Positions 5,604 through 13,973 of a DNA stretch of 45,920 bases are shown piece by piece. How positions within the stretch are numbered: position 1 is the stretch's first letter; each line of letters opens with the position of its first letter. The notes below the pieces were generated by a model. That model saw only the letters and a program-made list of their open reading frames with translations, was not told where the DNA came from and made no database searches. The translations under genes and the position numbers were made by a program. The DNA comes from Nitrospira lenta (GTDB taxonomy: Bacteria; Nitrospirota; Nitrospiria; Nitrospirales; Nitrospiraceae): positions 1-45,920 of the forward strand of contig CAMDRK010000001.1 of the NCBI GenBank assembly GCA_945906715.1. Reading direction: 5' to 3'.

Positions 5604-6628
5604 GAGTCGGTCTTCATGAGTTCGCGAAGTACGCTGGTCGCATAAGCGCCGGGTGGGAGCGAAAAAGAAAGCGTGAGCACAGTGCCTTCCAGAGCCCACT
5701 CCAAATCGGCAAGGGGGATTCGGAACGAGCGCCGTTCACCGCGAAACCCGCAGGACTTCGCGGCTTCGGTAAGACCCTCCGGTGTCGCCCCGCTCTCGAC
5801 AACCACAGCCCGTTCGATTTCACCCGGTTCCCCGCTGGCCCATGAGGCGCGTGATCCGAACAAGATACCGGTGGGACTGATTTCGAACCGGTCGGCCCGT
5901 GGCTGTTCCGCCGCGGCATCCTCAACCAGAAAACAGGCGCCGTTCTCCATCTTCATAGCCCAGTCTCCAACCAGGATACGATCGAGTCGATCCAGGCGTC
6001 GGGCCAACATGTCATTAAAGAAATGCGATTGATAGGCGTTGAGGTACCACATGCGCTTGGACCGGCTCAGCCTGTTTCGACGAGCAGAGTCCACCAGGAG
6101 TTCGGCACCAGTCTGGTAATTCTGTCCGCTCCGCCCTTGCCGTTGCGGGCCGAAATAGTTCGGCACGCCTCGTTGCACCAATATGTCCGTGACCAGGGGC
6201 ACCGTCTCACGAGCGTGCGGGGCGACATCCCGAATCACCAACCGAAAGTGATTGCCTGCATGGTGCCCAGGGCGCAAGCGATTACGATGCCAGCCCAGCA
6301 CCTCCACAGACAAGAGCTGCTCGTCCAATTTCAGCCGTTCCAGCCGTTCAGGCGGGACGCCGAGAAGTGAGATCATCTGTGTGGTCACAGCCCGGGCGTC
6401 TTTGAGACCTGCTACTCCGATCGCTTGCGCTTTCATCCCCAAGACCGAAGACAGTCGCAGGACGAGATCCGGAGTCGAGATCAGACGTTTTCTAATTTTA
6501 ATGTAGAGATGCTCACCCTCTCCGCAAGGAAGATAGAGCGGACGTTCTTCGACCTGGAAGTCTTCCGGAACAGTCCGCATCTGTCCGCCAATGCCTGGCA
6601 GTGCCGCTGTCAAATAAGGCATGGTCAT
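5579..6628 (-). CDS. truD: tRNA pseudouridine(13) synthase TruD
   Basis: Contains MTMPYLTAALPGIGGQMRTVPEDFQVEE...GLKDARAVTTQ, and the FGPQRQG motif region is present. Start chosen at ATG 6628 (ATG 6622 is also possible). The track start at 6682 is an alternative-codon extension. Confidence 0.85.
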   Translation of the reverse strand: MTMPYLTAALPGIGGQMRTVPEDFQVEERPLYLPCGEGEHLYIKIRKRLISTPDLVLRLSSVLGMKAQAIGVAGLKDARAVTTQMISLLGVPPERLERLKLDEQLLSVEVLGWHRNRLRPGHHAGNHFRLVIRDVAPHARETVPLVTDILVQRGVPNYFGPQRQGRSGQNYQTGAELLVDSARRNRLSRSKRMWYLNAYQSHFFNDMLARRLDRLDRILVGDWAMKMENGACFLVEDAAAEQPRADRFEISPTGILFGSRASWASGEPGEIERAVVVESGATPEGLTEAAKSCGFRGERRSFRIPLADLEWALEGTVLTLSFSLPPGAYATSVLRELMKTDSQAAENVR

Positions 6629-6723
6629 GGTGCAAGAGACCTCTTCTTCATTCGCACGTGATCGCCCTCGCCACTCAGTCAATCTCGATAGGGGTCAAGC
6701 GACGTGCATGGTATACTTTCTCC

Positions 6724-7401
6724 ATGGTTTTTGGCCAAGCCTCCAACCCAAATATCTGTTCCAAGCATCATGCACTGATACGCGGTCGGCCTGATACACC
6801 GCTGTTAGCGGCAGGGATGTTCCTCACTGTATTAACATATGGTCTCTTCCCTGGGGACTCGTTGGGTAGAGAGAGCACGGTCTTTCAACAGTTCACCCGG
6901 CACATCGACCGGCAGATCCATACAGACAAACAGGCCTTTGCCCAAGCGAACCGCTGTGTCTCGTGGTTTTACAGAGAGAAAAAGGCCCCTCCTCCGTCCG
7001 CACAAGGAATCAGCTGGAATGCCATTCCTGCGTCCCAGTCCGAGATGGATTGCCTTCATGCCTATCCAAACGGGATGGACGGTGCGCGCGATGACTTTGC
7101 CAAGACACAGACTATTCTTGCGGTCAGTCTGACCTTCTACGAATTCGCCTTGGTTGCCGACCGGAATGACGATGCAATCTACAATCCCACAGAAATCACA
7201 GATTTGCTCCGCTCCCTCTCCCTCTCGTACTATGATGGAGAACCACCCTCAAAGCAGGTCACGGCACTCACGGAACAATTCGACAACTGGCACCGCAGCC
7301 GCAACATGGACGCCTTAATGCAAGGCATGAGCGATCTCTATGCACGAGGCTATCGCGTAACCCCATCCGATCGCGTTGAGCTGGATCGGGTGATGGGATG
7401 A
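6724..7401 (+). CDS. hypothetical protein with one EF-hand-like loop
   Basis: Start moved to ATG 6724 to clear truD. It overlaps the next gene by 4 nt (ATGA). Contains DRNDDAIYNPTE, which resembles a 12-residue Ca-binding loop. Confidence 0.5.
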   Translation: MVFGQASNPNICSKHHALIRGRPDTPLLAAGMFLTVLTYGLFPGDSLGRESTVFQQFTRHIDRQIHTDKQAFAQANRCVSWFYREKKAPPPSAQGISWNAIPASQSEMDCLHAYPNGMDGARDDFAKTQTILAVSLTFYEFALVADRNDDAIYNPTEITDLLRSLSLSYYDGEPPSKQVTALTEQFDNWHRSRNMDALMQGMSDLYARGYRVTPSDRVELDRVMG

Positions 7402-8342: not shown

Positions 8343-8975
8343 CTACTTGATCCGCTCCAGCGCTTCCTTAGATCGGCTCCTGACAGTTTGATCCCAATCC
8401 TCCTTCATGACAGTCGTCAGCTTCTCCTTCGCCTCACCGGCGCGCAAACGGCCCAATCCCAACGCCGCACTGGAACGGACATAGGCATGCTCGTCCTCCA
8501 ACGCCTTCAGTAGAAGAGGGATCACGGTTCTATCGTTCAGAGCCCCAAGGTAACTGGCCGCCATGCCTCGAATCCGGTGCCGCTCATCACCCAATGCCCG
8601 CTGCAGCGTCATCGCAAAGAGGTCTCGTAATCCTGGTATCGCTGACTCCAACCCATCGGCTCGATACTCATTCACCTCCATCACCGCAAAGGCGATCTCC
8701 AGCTTCTTCTCTTGTATCGTGGCCCGTTCGAACGCAACCAACAACTTCGCGCGTTCCCGCCGTTGCGCCCTGCGGCGGTTGATCGCCCGGATCAACAGAA
8801 ACAGCCCCGCCGCAATCACCAATCCCGCAAACGCCACGGGAATAGCTTGATCGATCACATAGTCCTGGGTATCGAACGATAGACGCTTCCACCCCCAGAC
8901 GCCGGCAATCACGATACCGAGGACAACCCCGATGGCAATCAGATTGGTCTGGCCCGATTCAGAACGAGTGCTCAT
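8343..8975 (-). CDS. membrane-anchored HEAT-repeat protein
   Basis: Start set at ATG 8975 (MSTRSESGQTNLIAIGVVLGIVIAGVWGW, a TM segment). C-terminal HEAT-like repeats read YLGALNDRTVIPLLLKALEDEHAYVRSSAALGLG. The upstream extension in the track has poor coding character. Confidence 0.7.
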   Translation of the reverse strand: MSTRSESGQTNLIAIGVVLGIVIAGVWGWKRLSFDTQDYVIDQAIPVAFAGLVIAAGLFLLIRAINRRRAQRRERAKLLVAFERATIQEKKLEIAFAVMEVNEYRADGLESAIPGLRDLFAMTLQRALGDERHRIRGMAASYLGALNDRTVIPLLLKALEDEHAYVRSSAALGLGRLRAGEAKEKLTTVMKEDWDQTVRSRSKEALERIK

Positions 8976-10260
8976 GGGGATGGCATCATAACAGGATGGG
9001 AGGGGTGGAAGGGAGGGGCCAGGTGGGGAGTGGCGAGGCAGCTGGCATGGTCTCTGTGCTCGCAGAGCCCCCACGATAAAGCGGTGGTCGCTCGATGCGC
9101 GCAGTGGAGGCCACACCAGCCGCCTCGCTGAATGCGTGTAAAGAATTGAGTTCACCCGAGATAGCACGTTCATGAATCGTGAACAACGTGATTTAGTGAA
9201 CGGAACCGACTAAATCAACCCCGACAGCGACTAGAATTCGCCATTGGCGCGGAGGAGGAGCTGAAAGAGGTCGTCGAGACGGCGTCGGAAGACGGCTTGC
9301 GACATTTTATTTGGCGGCCGACTAGAAATGCCTCACGGTCACTACACTTCTTCTTTTACCGAGTTATGGCCATGCCTGGCTCTGCGGTTGATAGAGATAC
9401 TTCTGGAGGGCCACGAAGACGTTTCCGTTGGGCCGACCTGCAAGTCCTGGAAGAAGACCGGACCGCTCCTCGCCGATCGTAAAACACTGCCAGACCTTCG
9501 AGTTCTAATTCAAGACTTCGTGGACGGCAGTGCAAGCTCAAGCAATGACCCCCACGAATTTTCCCCTCAGCCGGTCTCCAACAACCCTGTGGTTGTTCCC
9601 TTTAGGGAAGGGGCTCGCCCGACAAGAGCCGTTGCGTCTGGATGATCGCCTCCAGCAATGCGCTCCGTTCCTCTTGCAGCTTCTTCGAAGGCGGCACGCG
9701 CGCCACAAATCGTTCCGCCGCTACCGCCAAGGCCTGCAACGTCTCGGCCATGTCCCCCTGCCTTGGGGCAGGCGACAACAAGGCTTCACGTAACAGCGCG
9801 CGCCTCCTCCTGGGCCCAACATACATCTGCGGGGCGGTCGGGTTATCTTTTTCCAACTCGGGTCGTCGAAATACCGCCATAGCTCCTCCAACGCATCAGA
9901 CAACGAGAAATAATCCGCACACTGTACTCGATTCGCGTCGGCAATTGCATCGGGGCGTGAGCACAGGGGGAATAGGGTGCCAAGCGGTGCAGCAGAATTT
10001 CTGATGTGGACGATGCGTGAGACGGCGCGACTGGCGGAAAGGATTCCGATTAAGTAGCCTGGTTTCTTTTACCTCTCCCAACGGTCAATGACCGATGGCA
10101 AGACCCGACCCAGATGTTGCCGGTCAAGAGCAACTGGGTGGCAGGAATCGGTGATGCCTGCCCGCCCTCAGGGGAGAAGATAGAGAAAACGTGGGCTGTG
10201 CGGCGGGAAAAGACTCCCGACCTCGCTTTCTTTTCCCTGGTACATTTTCTTTCTCATTTA

Positions 10261-10608
10261 TTAGTTTTCGTCGTACTTCCTTGCATTGCCGTAGGACTTT
10301 TCGACAGGGTACTTGGCTTCGTTCTTATTCATCTTCGAGAGGACTGCTGCGTTTAGATCAATGCTTAGGTCGTGGCACAGGTATGATAGAAGGATTGTAA
10401 CGTCGGCGATCTCATCCAAGACCTTCTCTCGGGAAGGACTGCTCAGCAAATGTGCAATCTCTTCCTCTGTTTTCCACAGGAATACTTCCTGCAACTCACT
10501 GGCCTCAACGGCAAGGGCAGTAGCCAGCTCTTTAGGCTTGTGGAACTGTTCCCAGTTTCGCTTGCGTCGAAATTCCAGTAGAGCTGTCATGACGCGTTCG
10601 TTTACCAT
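10261..10608 (-). CDS. MazG-like (all-alpha) nucleotide pyrophosphohydrolase, dCTPase-like
   Basis: Shows the EXXE...EXXD pattern (VEASELQEVF ... VLDEIADVTILL). ATG 10608 is preceded by GGAGAAGG. The alternative GTG 10629 would overlap the HNH stop (GTGA). Either way it is operonic with the HNH gene. Confidence 0.8.
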   Translation of the reverse strand: MVNERVMTALLEFRRKRNWEQFHKPKELATALAVEASELQEVFLWKTEEEIAHLLSSPSREKVLDEIADVTILLSYLCHDLSIDLNAAVLSKMNKNEAKYPVEKSYGNARKYDEN

Positions 10609-10625
10609 TGGCGCCTTCTCCTCAC

Positions 10626-11570
10626 TCACGCAAGATAGGTATTGCTGTTATGCCATTCCAAAAACTTTGACGAAGGCCTATCCTTTTCCGTTGCAGGCAC
10701 GACGACCAGCTTTCGGCCATGCAGCGCGTAGTAATCCCGCCCATTCTCAAATTCTTCTTTGATCTTTCTGCTTACTTCTACCGAAAGATCTGGCGTGACT
10801 GACAAATAGCCAGAATCAAATAGTTTGTGAAGGTCTGAGCGCAGCAGCAAGCCGTTAGTCGTAACGTTTGGGCCCGACTTTGCAAACGGTTGGATGTGCG
10901 CGGCCTCAAGTGCAGGGAGAGTGCGTTCGCCAGTGATCGCGCAGCGTCGCGTGTACGCGTCTGTAACAAGAACTCGAAAGGCCCCTTGGCCAAGTCTGGC
11001 CCTGGTTAGGAATTCAGCACCGTACCTTGCGACCTCTTCGGCCGATGGGGAGGCGCCGCCTGCTCGAAGCGGAGGCTCCTTGGGAACTATTCTGGCAAGC
11101 CGATCTTGGACTTCCATCCATATTTCTCGCCCAATTCTCTCCTCGCTCTCATAACTCTTCCCTTGGACAATGCTCGGCGCCCAATTGGATGGAGCGGGAA
11201 TCCAATCTCGCCTTTGAAGAAAGAAAGGATCAGCTAAAATAGTACATCCGATGGTCGGGTCGTGCTCGTGTGGCTTGTTCGATCTGAATTTCTCAATCAT
11301 TGCCCGCAGCGTTTCGAGAGAAGCAGCGCCATTCTTCTCGCCGAACGCTTCCCACGCTAGTGACAGCGGCAGATTAGAGTGGCTGACAAAGAAACCACCT
11401 CCCGCTATGAAATTATCCGGGCTATGTAGTTTGAAAAGAAAAGGCGCACCAGGCGGGATTATCTGGAATGATCCAGACCCACCAGGCCGCCAGAAATTGA
11501 CCTCATCAGGTTTGCGGCTGGCAAGAAAATCGAACCACTTGTTGTCTGTTACACCGACGTAGAATTTCAT
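10626..11570 (-). CDS. HNH endonuclease with an unassigned N-terminal domain of about 190 aa
   Basis: The C-terminal HNH region is RRCAITGERTLPALEAAHIQPFAKSGPNVTTNGLLLRSDLHKLFD. The N-terminus is MKFYVGVTDNKWFDFLASRKPDEVNFWRPGG...FLFKLHSPDNFIAGGGFF. Sits in AT-richer DNA. Confidence 0.85.
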   Translation of the reverse strand: MKFYVGVTDNKWFDFLASRKPDEVNFWRPGGSGSFQIIPPGAPFLFKLHSPDNFIAGGGFFVSHSNLPLSLAWEAFGEKNGAASLETLRAMIEKFRSNKPHEHDPTIGCTILADPFFLQRRDWIPAPSNWAPSIVQGKSYESEERIGREIWMEVQDRLARIVPKEPPLRAGGASPSAEEVARYGAEFLTRARLGQGAFRVLVTDAYTRRCAITGERTLPALEAAHIQPFAKSGPNVTTNGLLLRSDLHKLFDSGYLSVTPDLSVEVSRKIKEEFENGRDYYALHGRKLVVVPATEKDRPSSKFLEWHNSNTYLA

Positions 11571-11877
11571 AGAATCATGATGCCACCGGCTTGCGCGCCC
11601 CTTACCTAAATCACTCGCAATCAGACAGATTTCATAGAGGGCAATTTCGAGATCAGCGGCGATTCCTTTGGCAATGATGCCAGATAAGATTTACGGTAAA
11701 TGGCTCCTCGTATCTCTCGACTTATGGCACGATGCTGCTGCCCATGAAGCATTGGGGCATGATAGACCGTTGGTTCCATAGTCGCTCCCAGAGCGCATGG
11801 ACGGCAGAATACCCTTTTCCCTAAGAGAAATCACTCCGACTTGGGGGGACGTGAGTGCACAGATGGCGAGACGGGGG

Positions 11878-11961
11878 TTGGTCTGTCTAGTTGGCCAGAT
11901 CGGGAACCTCACCAGAGAAACCAGACAGATCAGATAGACCAAATAGACAAGAGAGACAAGG
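11878..11961. repeat. periodic-repeat hairpin, nonamer family, right-arm dominant
   Basis: TTGGTCTGTCTAGTTGGCC ... ACCAGAGAAACCAGACAGATCAGATAGACCAAATAGACAAGAGAGACAAGG. Confidence 0.75.
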
Positions 11962-11976
11962 ATCGAGGGGCTCCCC

Positions 11977-12494
11977 TCAAGTCTTGAACCCGATGCGGCG
12001 GGATTTCGATGGAGGCGGTCCGATTAGTTGGCGGATGGCGTCAAAGAGGGACTGAATCTGTCCATCATGGCCACCTACCTTCCGTTCGAGTTGTGCCAAC
12101 TTGGTCGCCAACCCCCTATAGCTCGCCACCAGTTCCCGCAGCTTCACGAATGCTCGCATAATGCGATATTCACTTGGATCGCACGCTTGCTTCGCAACGC
12201 ACTGGACAGCATTGCGACACCTTGTTCCGTGAATACGTAGGGCGCGTATCGGCGACCTCCTCTCCCCCTGGGTTTTGATATTCCAATTTGAAATGTCAAA
12301 GCCGCTGCTTCTTGTGCGGATAATCGAAACATAAAGTCATCGGGAAACCGATCAGCATTCCTCTTTACGGCTTTATTGAGATTGAACGTCGTGACTCCAT
12401 ACAGTTTTGCAAGGTCCGAGTCCAGCATGACTCGATGACCACGGATCAGAAGAATTGCCTGCTCAATTCTTTCACGAGGAACCAGAACGCTCAT
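11977..12494 (-). pseudogene. ORF6N-domain DNA-binding protein split by a 1-nt frameshift
   Basis: ORF 12144-12494 ends ...RAIQVNIALCEHS*. The +1 frame continues MRAFVKLRELVASYRGLATKLAQLERK...RIGFKT (11977-12159), which is the usual C-terminal half of this family. The junction is near 12160-12163. Confidence 0.7.
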
Positions 12495-12619
12495 ATTCTT
12501 TTCCGTTCTGTGCGAGAGGACTCGGGGCGAACAGAAATACCGTTTTTATCATGGAAAATCAACGCGGACGCACCTGAAATAGAACCATTCGAATGGGTGG
12601 AACAGGAGCAAAGGGCGGG

Positions 12620-12964
12620 CTAGGCTTTCTCGCCAAGGGCTTCGAGGAGGCGGTCGATCTTTTGTTTCAGAACCGGCAAGTCTCGTTCGACCACATCCCA
12701 CACCAGTTGCAAATTGACTCCAAAATAATCGTGAATCAGTTTATCTCTCATGCCGGCGATGGGCTTCCACGCTATGTCAGAGTGAGCCTCTTTCAGCGTG
12801 ACGGATACGCGCTTGATTGCTTCCCCGATGATTTCGAGGTTACGCACAACCGCATCTTGGGTCTTTCGGTCGGAAAAGAAGCTCTCCTTTCCTGTTGCTG
12901 TATAGCTCATGATGTGCTGAATGGCGTCTCGAACGTGCAGGAGATAGATGCGGTCGTCCTTCAT
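12620..12964 (-). CDS. hepT: HepT-like (DUF86) toxin, HEPN RNase
   Basis: Carries the Rx4HxY motif in GMRDKLIHDYFGV. 114 aa. Its ATG overlaps the mntA stop by 4 nt. Confidence 0.85.
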   Translation of the reverse strand: MKDDRIYLLHVRDAIQHIMSYTATGKESFFSDRKTQDAVVRNLEIIGEAIKRVSVTLKEAHSDIAWKPIAGMRDKLIHDYFGVNLQLVWDVVERDLPVLKQKIDRLLEALGEKA

Positions 12965-13251
12965 AGAGGGACAGCTTCGGCATGGATTCGCTGCTCAAGG
13001 TATGGACTCAGGCCCTGATCGGTGAGGATATCGACTTTGCGCTGTAGTAATGTTTCGAGGTCTTGGCTGAGTTCGATGAGATCCAGCAAGCTACGCCCAT
13101 TATCCATCTCAACAAGGAAGTCGACATCGCTTTCCGGACGCGCCTCCCCTCTTGCCACAGACCCAAAGATCCGCACGTTGTGGGCTCCGTGTGCCTGCGC
13201 GAGGCGCAGTATTTCCGGCCGTTTGAATTTGAGCAAGTCTGCGATACCCAT
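12961..13251 (-). CDS. mntA: MntA-like nucleotidyltransferase antitoxin
   Basis: Carries FGSVARGEARPESDVDFLV (GSxxRG...SDxD). Start set at ATG 13251 (96 aa). The 254-aa track ORF runs upstream through non-coding repeat units. Confidence 0.85.
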   Translation of the reverse strand: MGIADLLKFKRPEILRLAQAHGAHNVRIFGSVARGEARPESDVDFLVEMDNGRSLLDLIELSQDLETLLQRKVDILTDQGLSPYLEQRIHAEAVPL

Positions 13252-13426
13252 TTTACGCTCCCTGAGAAGTATCTCGTCCTTGGAGGATACTGATTTACTC
13301 ACGGCCTGACAAGCAGTACTTGCTAAGCGTTGAGGCTCAGGAGTGCGCGCGTTCCTTCGGAAGGTCTTGGAACGACGCTTTTCCAATTCGCTATGCCTCA
13401 CTCTAGGGGATCGGCCGAGGTTGTCT

Positions 13427-13973
13427 TTTACTGCGCGCATCGAGCGATATACATGTTCCCTCCAAGCTTGCTCGTTTCTCTCTAGGGATGGGGGCTGACG
13501 GATCTTCCACTGCGCGCGTCCAACGAGGGCCTTCTCAGGCCGCGCGTTGCGCGAGCACAGAAGATCATCAGGCTCCATCCCCTCCTCTGTTCTGCGAGCA
13601 AGAAGGGCACCTGGCCACTCCTTCTCATCCCTCCAGGCTTGTTTACTGTACCTCTCTGGGAATGGCACTCGTAGTGGTCCAACTGCGCACGTCGAGCGAG
13701 CACATTCCGATCGTGCGCGCTCCACCTTCTACTTGGAGGGCGGGCTAGATGGTCTCCCACTGCGCGTGTCCAACGAGGGGTTTCTGAGGCCGCGCGTTGC
13801 ACGAGCACAGGAGACCGTCTAGCCTGACCTCTCATGCTCCCTCCAAGCTCGCTCGCTATTTTCTCAGGGATGGGGCCTGATTGATCTTCCACTGCGCGCG
13901 TCCAACGAGGGCCTTCCCAGGCCGCGCGTTGCGCGAGCACAGAAGATCATCAGGCCCCATCCCCTCCCCCTCT
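13427..13973 (+). repeat. tandem array of CACTGCGCGC-core palindromic elements (family PCORE)
   Basis: Three full A-type units lie at about 13452-13583, 13740-13825 and 13834-13973. Their core is CCACTGCGCG(C/T)GTCCAACGAGGG-N-GGCCGCGCGTTGC(G/A)CGAGCACAG. B-type variants lie at about 13427-13450 and 13660-13735 (ACTGCGC(G/A)C(A/G)TCGAGCGA). A shared leader CATG(T/C)TCCCTCCAAGCT(T/C)GCTCG is seen twice. Confidence 0.85.

Follow-up and report, generated by a model that had tools for sequence, protein, structure and literature searches.

A predicted modification-dependent HNH nuclease and a DCTPP1-like MazG protein as an optional, mobile gene pair in Nitrospira lenta

The two genes and the cassette around them

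The window analyzed here, a stretch of 45,920 nucleotides (nt) from Nitrospira lenta (GenBank assembly GCA_945906715.1, contig CAMDRK010000001.1, positions 1 to 45,920), holds on its minus strand two adjacent open reading frames (ORFs), an HNH gene (10626..11570, ATG start, 314 amino acids (aa), C-terminal HNH_2 nuclease) followed by a MazG-like gene (10261..10629 when read from a GTG). An original prediction, made from the letters alone, had described them as a coupled HNH endonuclease and MazG-like nucleotide pyrophosphohydrolase and as a candidate two-gene defense module; the pair is present as described, and the HNH ORF holds every motif quoted there. Direct reading also bears out the two starts proposed for the second gene, one behind its own Shine-Dalgarno sequence after a 17-nt gap and one by a GTGA overlap, as well as the resulting sizes of 115 and 122 aa. 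The TGA stop of the HNH gene occupies 10628-10626 and the GTG 10629-10627, forming the GTGA overlap, and the in-frame ATG lies at 10608, 17 nt past the HNH stop. The intergenic spacer (10609..10625, minus strand; reverse complement GTGAGGAGAAGGCGCCA, then the ATG at 10608) carries a GAGGAG Shine-Dalgarno sequence about 9 nt 5' of this ATG. Because homologs of the MazG-like protein are mostly 114-115 aa long, the ATG at 10608 appears likelier as the start than the GTG at 10629, giving a 115-aa DCTPP1-like all-alpha nucleoside triphosphate (NTP) pyrophosphohydrolase (10261..10608, minus strand), with the 122-aa product as the alternative. The MazG-like gene is probably co-transcribed with the HNH gene and translationally coupled to it.

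Comparison with the two closest relatives, the loci L001 and L085 of our samples, shows that the two genes form a small cassette (leader, HNH and MazG; 10236..11708, minus strand). Nucleotide homology covers 10236-11708 in L001 (91%) and 10268-11708 in L085 (89%), the flanks being unrelated, and the common span of 1.47 kilobases (kb) consists of the two genes, a leader of about 140 nt and a trailer of about 25 nt. Since homology stops at its ends and the flanks differ, the pair travels as a 1.47-kb cassette, and HNH and MazG are a small horizontally mobile unit whose genes move together. The 5' leader, a putative promoter region (11571..11708, minus strand), comprises the approximately 140 nt upstream of the HNH start that align with L001 and L085; the alignment ends beyond them, and the leader is not conserved in the more distant loci L002-L004. 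Between 10 and 13 kb the G+C content drops to 0.51-0.52, the rest of the window having about 0.57. Consensus scans retrieved no sigma-70 promoter on the coding strand of the cassette and no terminator near it, and its flanks contain only short repeats that are probably due to chance.

A putative type IV restriction endonuclease and its small partner

The C-terminal part of the 314-aa protein (residues 193-314 and the stop; 10626..10994, minus strand) is a beta-beta-alpha-Me nuclease domain of the HNH_2 family (Pfam PF13391), recognized at residues 210-258 with an E-value of 1.2e-13 and 51 bits against a cutoff of 21. This half aligns with VcaM4I (EVE-HNH, 309 aa, PDB 6yex) at 3e-6 and with TagI (SRA-HNH, 311 aa) at 3e-3, and has the motifs AAHIxP, NGLLL and DLHxLFDxGY in common with both. 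Residues H225, N239, N240 and H248 are invariant in 36 HNH homologs of 59-89% identity. In PADLOC-DB v2.0 the protein is recognized by generic HNH and type II restriction-enzyme models alone, among them the HNH model PDLC04132 at 2.4e-17. An assignment to the phosphorothioate-dependent enzymes of the ScoMcrA type (sulfur-binding domain fused to HNH, SBD-HNH; NF045808) was rejected, with 73 bits against a cutoff of 180: the alignment is confined to the HNH_2 half (residues 182-310, profile positions 149-281), and the sulfur-binding N-terminal half is left unaligned.

The N-terminal domain retrieved no match by sequence in Pfam or PDB, either as a single sequence or as a 36-sequence profile, nor any by sequence in NCBIfam, and in that sense stays as unassigned as the original prediction had it. 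Its length is about 160 residues, not the approximately 190 first proposed. In an AlphaFold2 model of the whole protein (mean predicted local distance difference test score, pLDDT, of 73), residues 1-160 (11091..11570, minus strand) mostly reach 82-93, the ten residues of block 31-40 having 64, and Foldseek comparisons predict for them a PUA-superfamily (ASCH/EVE-like) fold, to be understood at the fold level only. A variable and probably flexible linker follows (residues 161-192; 10995..11090, minus strand), with pLDDT values below 50 at residues 164-192, which is also the most variable and most gap-rich section of the 36-sequence HNH alignment. The top PDB match of the whole protein in Foldseek was VcaM4I (E-value 2.8e-6, probability 1.00), next came the ASCH-domain structures ZmASCH and af2351 (E-values of about 1e-4, target-normalized template modeling (TM) scores of 0.64-0.72, several at probability 1.00), and weaker matches included TagI (rank 12, whole chain), ASCH-like YqfB and the modified-base-reading N-terminal domains of archaeal McrB. 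Structure prediction, which had been suggested as a check for a PUA/EVE/SRA-like reader, thus yields a PUA-superfamily fold and a whole protein resembling the type IV enzymes VcaM4I and TagI. Five aromatic residues of the domain (W12, F26, W27, F44 and W73) are invariant in the 36-sequence alignment.

A search of 1.84 billion representative proteins retrieved 2,573 clusters (50% identity) that match the N-terminal domain alone at E-values of at most 1e-3. Nearly all of the best 150 representatives are no longer than 350 aa, and those checked carry HNH_2, except two; in P0291 and P0333 the same domain is fused to a Mrr_cat PD-(D/E)XK nuclease, not to HNH. The longer proteins among these 150 were examined for a fusion with MazG (a Rosetta stone), and none was found. 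Such an exchange of the N-terminal domain between unrelated nucleases is a signature of modification-dependent restriction enzymes, and for EVE readers both EVE-HNH and EVE-PD(D/E)XK pairings have been described (PMC7641849). The domain represents a large family without a Pfam model or a solved structure, with no characterized member in the sources searched, and it probably functions as a modified-base reader.

Ten ORFs of the window, from 5.6 to 16.3 kb, were scanned, and no DNA methyltransferase was found among them beside the HNH gene. Among the same-strand neighbors of its relatives (n = 65), Pfam gave a single N6_Mtase match and PADLOC one type I and two type III methyltransferase matches, all methyltransferase cases lying in restriction-modification islands. 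Because the protein combines an HNH_2 domain with invariant residues, a PUA-like fold and whole-chain matches to VcaM4I and TagI, and because of the Mrr_cat swap and the lack of a neighboring methyltransferase, the best-supported assignment is that of a type IV (modification-dependent) restriction endonuclease, whose cleavage would depend on a modified base.

The closest known enzymes are VcaM4I/TspA15I (EVE-HNH) and TagI (SRA-HNH; PDB 6ghs), with 309-311 aa against 314 aa here (PMC6765204; PMC7897488). VcaM4I and TagI show the same order of an N-terminal PUA-superfamily reader, a linker and a C-terminal HNH_2 nuclease, and their class is reported without an adjacent DNA methyltransferase, as at this locus. 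In contrast, the N-terminal domain described here has no recognizable sequence similarity to EVE or SRA, its fold being at least as near to ASCH as to EVE, and its gene has a deoxynucleoside triphosphate (dNTP) pyrophosphatase partner, which is not mentioned for those enzymes in the literature compared.

The partner matches the Pfam MazG-like family (PF12643) with an E-value of 3.4e-16 and 59.7 bits against a cutoff of 27. Among proteins of solved structure, a PDB sequence search ranks human and mouse DCTPP1 first (2e-19, about 105 residues aligned), and the Archaeoglobus pyrophosphatase 4qgp matches at 1e-17. The EXXE...EXXD metal-binding pattern noted by the original prediction corresponds to E35, E38, E66 and D69 (115-aa numbering), which are invariant in 31 homologs, including HNH-linked copies from other phyla, and align to E63, E66, E95 and D98 of DCTPP1; W19, H23, W45 and Y100 show full or almost full conservation in the same 31 sequences. 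In DCTPP1, Trp47 and Trp73 sandwich the base, and His38 and His51 are the proposed cytosine selectivity filters (PMC13291643). When our alignment is mapped onto the residue list of that study, the W47/W73 sandwich, F41, F50, H51, I101 and Y129 of the base pocket are kept. DCTPP1 prefers dCTP and C5-modified dCTP and prevents the misincorporation of methylated dCTP (PMC13291643; PMC4491611).

DCTPP1 (RS21-C6/XTP3-TPA) and the protein encoded here also share the motifs RxWxQFH and FxWK, in addition to the EXXE...EXXD site, the tryptophan sandwich, His51 and Tyr129. The differences are that the present protein is bacterial, has 115 aa without the eukaryotic N- and C-terminal extensions, carries leucine in place of His38 and Tyr102, and is encoded in a mobile operon with a nuclease. 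Together, these likenesses suggest a DCTPP1-type all-alpha dNTP pyrophosphatase, presumably active on dCTP-like substrates. No PADLOC-DB v2.0 model matches it, and phage genomes seldom carry a member of its subfamily (15 of 50,697 records).

Distribution of the pair and its genomic neighbors

The gene neighborhoods of both proteins were analyzed in two samples, one of 80 HNH-side loci from one-genome-per-species contigs (51-94% identity, many phyla) and one of 80 MazG-side metagenome loci (42-87% identity). A MazG-like gene lies on the same strand within 2.5 kb in 17 of the HNH loci, with no MazG match elsewhere in those loci. In 13 cases it is immediately downstream of HNH, in L062 immediately upstream, in L048 and L066 about 2 kb upstream, and in L019 it is apparently frameshifted; beyond these 17, L044 has a further weak match about 90 nt downstream of HNH. 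The copy in L019 (6978-7293), located between HNH and a helicase gene, consists of two tblastn segments in different frames, which may reflect decay of the gene or a mistake in sequencing. From the MazG side, an HNH homolog adjoins the gene in 10 of the 80 loci, including the divergent L134 and the reversed L093, two of the ten being distant HNH_2 paralogs (L099 and L107). The paired genes are separated by about 17-60 nt or overlap, occur in three orders or orientations, and are found in Nitrospirota, Burkholderiales, other Gammaproteobacteria, Bacteroidota, Krumholzibacteriota and FCPU426.

By our own rough estimate, which is not a computed value, chance would place a roughly single-copy gene within 1 kb in about 0.04 cases per 80 loci, and the HNH-MazG adjacency is far beyond chance. 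A neighbor-joining tree built from the HNH proteins disperses the linked loci, implying about 10 parsimony changes (gains or losses), and in the MazG tree the linked copies fall into several clades, intermixed with unlinked ones. The pairwise identities of the partners are correlated (Mantel r = 0.73, reached by none of 5000 permutations), and this holds without the Nitrospira clade. Nevertheless, an obligate two-gene operon was rejected, as the partner is present in only 17 of 80 HNH-side and 10 of 80 MazG-side loci. Beside the HNH homologs without MazG, no recurrent substitute family (Nudix, dUTPase or HAD were looked for) appeared among the same-strand neighbors. The pairing is therefore a recurrent but optional accessory association. 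The neighborhood check proposed at the outset came out in favor of the original prediction, as the genes co-localize in several phyla, with short gaps and in varying order, with the qualification that they are optional partners.

The commonest neighbor of MazG is not the nuclease but a helicase of about 620-740 aa of the SLFN-g3/DUF2075 type (PF09848), whose start usually lies 3-10 nt past the MazG stop. It is present in 18 of 80 MazG-side and 8 of 80 HNH-side loci, seven of these eight also having MazG, and the three-gene HNH-MazG-helicase loci include L022, L038, L047, L056 and L150. The PADLOC matches of the helicase (PDC-S41, AbiO and Nhi) are weak, and its N-terminal region of about 250 residues has no explaining match in PDB or NCBIfam. 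It is absent from the window, and a decayed copy in the stretch 9174-10260 was rejected, as tblastn retrieved nothing there. The modular set thus has MazG as its hub, and the window carries a two-gene subset of it; the two-gene module of the original prediction is real as a pair, but this more frequent partner had been overlooked.

Several variants of these loci were also observed. MazG and helicase genes stand together in L120:3040-5255, L132:4001-6171, L150:3036-6258 and L022:6001-10186, and four-gene versions add a second HNH_2 paralog. In L121:2007-6543 and L136:1418-3397, a TPR protein of about 660 aa is followed by MazG and then by a helicase with an N-terminal GIY-YIG nuclease and a C-terminal S24 peptidase. 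About 5 of 80 loci (among them L022:9284-10186, L031:2446-3387 and L079:6912-7820) have a second HNH_2 paralog of about 300 aa beside the primary HNH gene; the tandem paralogs presumably carry different N-terminal readers and would thus be tandem type IV-like enzymes. A separate, unannotated bacterial group of His-Me finger proteins, Group 23, has been defined only by being encoded next to MazG (Jablonska et al., 2017; PMC5714182).

The original prediction knew of no named system with this pairing, and indeed the two proteins together fit no single system of PADLOC-DB v2.0. Full-text literature searches retrieved no paper describing a PUA-HNH and MazG pair or the three-part network with the helicase, nor any mentioning both MazG and DUF2075. 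The architecture of a PUA reader fused to HNH is already known, and for its pairing with a DCTPP1-like MazG we found no description.

In the window, the gene order is TruD, metallophosphoesterase, HEAT protein, an ORF-poor stretch, the MazG-HNH cassette, ORF6N, HepT-MntA and MarR; the other ORFs scanned between 5.6 and 16.3 kb encode a metallo-beta-lactamase-fold protein, a transglutaminase-like protein and a product without a Pfam match (6601-7401). The ORF-poor stretch (9174-10260, about 1.1 kb) has no convincing ORF and a host-like G+C content of 0.58, and Rfam retrieved no match across 8500-13000. Just upstream of the HNH gene lies an ORF6N-domain (KilA-N-like) gene (12144-12494, minus strand). 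ORF6N may be a recurrent neighbor of HNH, as it is confirmed by Pfam in L007 (5484-5984) and suggested by BLAST clustering in L026 and L051. At higher coordinates lies a gene for a HepT-like RNase (12620-12964, minus strand), which overlaps a nucleotidyltransferase (MntA) ORF (12961-13725, minus strand) whose domain is recognized only at residues ~182-250 and whose true start is probably later. This HepT-MntA toxin-antitoxin pair (12620-13725) shares the low-G+C stretch of the cassette.

The neighborhoods of the HNH relatives contain type I HsdR, GmrSD, UvrD-like helicases, Fic, NucS/DUF5655 and second HNH_2 paralogs, and a relative on a Mesorhizobium plasmid has AbiEii and a type ISP enzyme nearby. 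Strong PADLOC matches among these neighbors are PDC-S18, PDC-S02, PDC-S41 and type I/III methyltransferases. The HNH family thus sits often, but not always, in defense islands, having in its vicinity restriction systems (type I, type ISP and GmrSD), AbiEii, Fic and candidate families of PADLOC.

A possible division of labor and its alternatives

Our preferred reading, which we hold tentatively and with slightly less than even confidence, is that of a type IV restriction enzyme accompanied by an optional DCTPP1-type sanitizer of the nucleotide pool for modified dCTP, the two sharing one mobile operon. The PUA-like domain of the nuclease would read a modified base and the HNH domain would cut the DNA so marked. 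MazG would hydrolyze dCTP-like triphosphates to the monophosphates, and its likeliest substrates would be C5-modified, for example 5-methyl- and 5-hydroxymethyl-dCTP, which could come from the salvage of degraded foreign DNA or be made by a phage. By keeping modified dCTP out of the pool, it would spare the host chromosome the mark that its own nuclease attacks, and the same hydrolysis would deny phages the precursor of a protective modification. The original prediction had envisaged DNA cleavage combined with hydrolysis of canonical or modified dNTPs; a PUA-HNH nuclease beside a pyrophosphohydrolase partly supports that combination, but as the small protein is specifically DCTPP1-like, sanitizing modified dCTP seems likelier than whole-pool depletion of the kind seen in dCTP deaminase and dGTPase systems.

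The gene structure, the domain identities, the kept catalytic and base-pocket residues and the recurrent, mobile co-localization are observed; the dependence on modification, the identity of the base, the substrate of MazG and the role in self-protection are all things that we infer. Several points weigh against this reading. In the base pocket, His38, one of the two proposed cytosine selectivity filters, is a leucine, as is Tyr102, and cytosine specificity is therefore not assured. The fold matches of the N-terminal domain span both EVE-HNH and ASCH proteins, so that the reader falls in no definite PUA clade (EVE, SRA or ASCH), and the base that it reads may be N6-methyladenine (6mA), to which some PUA-HNH enzymes such as ScoA3V respond (PMC6765204). 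Both 80-locus sets consist of best-scoring matches without phylogenetic balance, and a shared phylogeny of the hosts may explain part of the Mantel correlation. Moreover, about 80% of the HNH homologs have no neighboring MazG, which shows that the nuclease does not need it. A MazG homolog of 75% identity stands alone in Nitrospira defluvii-type contigs (L081-L084), and in four loci of the range L088-L092 the neighbors of MazG are an alpha/beta hydrolase on one side and a PurU-like formyltransferase on the other. The lone copies of L081-L084 have a Y1 (REP-associated-type) transposase in their flank, and the variant L083 carries an IS110 transposase insertion directly upstream.

Nucleotide-pool depletion is an established defense principle, and this counts for the strongest alternative, in which the two genes would be independent defense genes in one operon, with MazG antiviral by lowering dCTP or by destroying the modified dNTPs of phages, and HNH cutting modified DNA; neither would depend on or shield the other, and together they would only add layers of defense. 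The distribution is consistent with it, since about 85% of the MazG homologs have no neighboring HNH gene, some of them in housekeeping-looking contexts, and since MazG also partners the SLFN-g3/DUF2075 helicase, a protein of a defense type with weak PADLOC matches. MazG domains have also been predicted to be defensive, a prediction never validated (PMC13092281), and have been proposed as NTP-targeting effectors (PMC12871103). However, a 115-aa MazG without a sensor or regulatory domain should be constitutively active, and a strong constitutive depleter of dCTP should be toxic, whereas the DCTPP1 relatives sanitize rather than deplete. In addition, MazG has only two recurrent partner families, both of nucleic-acid enzymes, the correlation of partner identities suggests a specific partnership, and this MazG fits no PADLOC model. 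We consider independent defense rather unlikely.

A coincidental or selfish adjacency, in which a housekeeping MazG would be the landing site of a mobile HNH gene or its hitch-hiker without any functional link, is improbable in our view. It would account for the Nitrospira relatives that carry a 75-77% identical MazG without HNH beside Y1 and IS110 transposases, for the copies between hydrolase and formyltransferase genes, and for the HNH gene being solitary in most genomes, but not readily for a pairing that recurs across phyla in three gene orders with about 10 independent transitions. It is also at odds with the joint movement of both genes, as a 1.47-kb unit, into unrelated flanks, with the invariant catalytic residues of the linked MazG copies, and with the location of all 17 matches on the same strand within 2.5 kb of HNH.

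Less probable still is a sensor-effector circuit resembling PUA-Cal-HAD, in which the PUA-like domain would bind a free modified mononucleotide set free during infection and so switch on the nuclease, MazG or both, leading to abortive infection through DNA damage and dNTP loss. In PUA-Cal-HAD, as described in a preprint (PMC12871103), m6-dAMP is sensed by a PUA-like domain, which drives the depletion of dNTPs, and PUA-like-HNH fusions and rare variants with MazG in place of the calcineurin-like effector are noted. The likeness thus lies in the combination of a PUA-like sensor of modified nucleotides with an enzyme attacking nucleoside triphosphates, MazG being an alternative effector there. 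However, the PUA-Cal motifs VWWGWWxKxxExxP (II) and TPxYY (V) are absent from residues 1-165 and from the family consensus, and there is no HAD gene in the window neighborhood or among the 25 most frequent Pfam families of the relatives' same-strand neighbors; membership in PUA-Cal-HAD or its MazG variant was rejected on these grounds. Here the PUA domain is fused to HNH, with MazG as a separate, single-domain protein, and in structure the closest matches are type IV enzymes that read DNA.

The least credible alternative is an addiction (toxin-antitoxin-like) module with HNH as toxin and MazG as protector, persisting by post-segregational killing rather than by defense, since most HNH homologs survive without MazG, unexpectedly for an antitoxin-dependent toxin, since the catalytic site of MazG is intact and not that of a binding-only protein, and since a nuclease-first, protector-second order is unusual in type II toxin-antitoxin systems, even though the cassette is small, mobile, tightly coupled and adjacent to a HepT-MntA pair (to a Fic gene in L001) and even though the E. 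coli mazG gene lies within the mazEF operon (as cited in PMC5714182).

For the pairing itself, the closest analog, and a precedent in favor of our preferred reading, is SauUSI, a type IV enzyme acting on 5-methylcytosine (5mC) and 5-hydroxymethylcytosine (5hmC). At least 60 genomes show a genetic linkage between it and a MutT/Nudix pyrophosphohydrolase, whose function was left open (PMC3141236; see also PMC7641849). In both cases a nuclease for modified DNA, directed at modified cytosine in SauUSI, would stand beside a small nucleotide pyrophosphohydrolase. SauUSI has, however, a PLD-helicase-DUF3427 architecture and its partner is of the Nudix fold, both unrelated to the proteins described here; the parallel would be convergent, its function being equally conjectural.

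In classical restriction-modification, a methyltransferase marks the self DNA, and type IV restriction enzymes are as a rule regarded as solitary genes that face no problem of self-protection. A broader view, which we regard as doubtful, is that DCTPP1-like MazG proteins are general "immunity" factors for modification-dependent nucleases, with an inverted restriction-modification logic in which a sanitizer keeps a foreign mark out of self DNA; MazG would then be the hub of a PUA-like-HNH/MazG/helicase network, and the SauUSI-Nudix pair a convergent case. If true, this logic would also explain the SauUSI-Nudix linkage, unexamined since 2011. The recurrent, mobile link between the nuclease and a DCTPP1-type pyrophosphatase suggests that a real hazard or opportunity arises when modified nucleotides, whether salvaged or made by a phage, are incorporated. 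The pairing offers a directly testable role for the bacterial homologs of DCTPP1, and the family of the N-terminal domain could yield new enzymes for epigenetic mapping.

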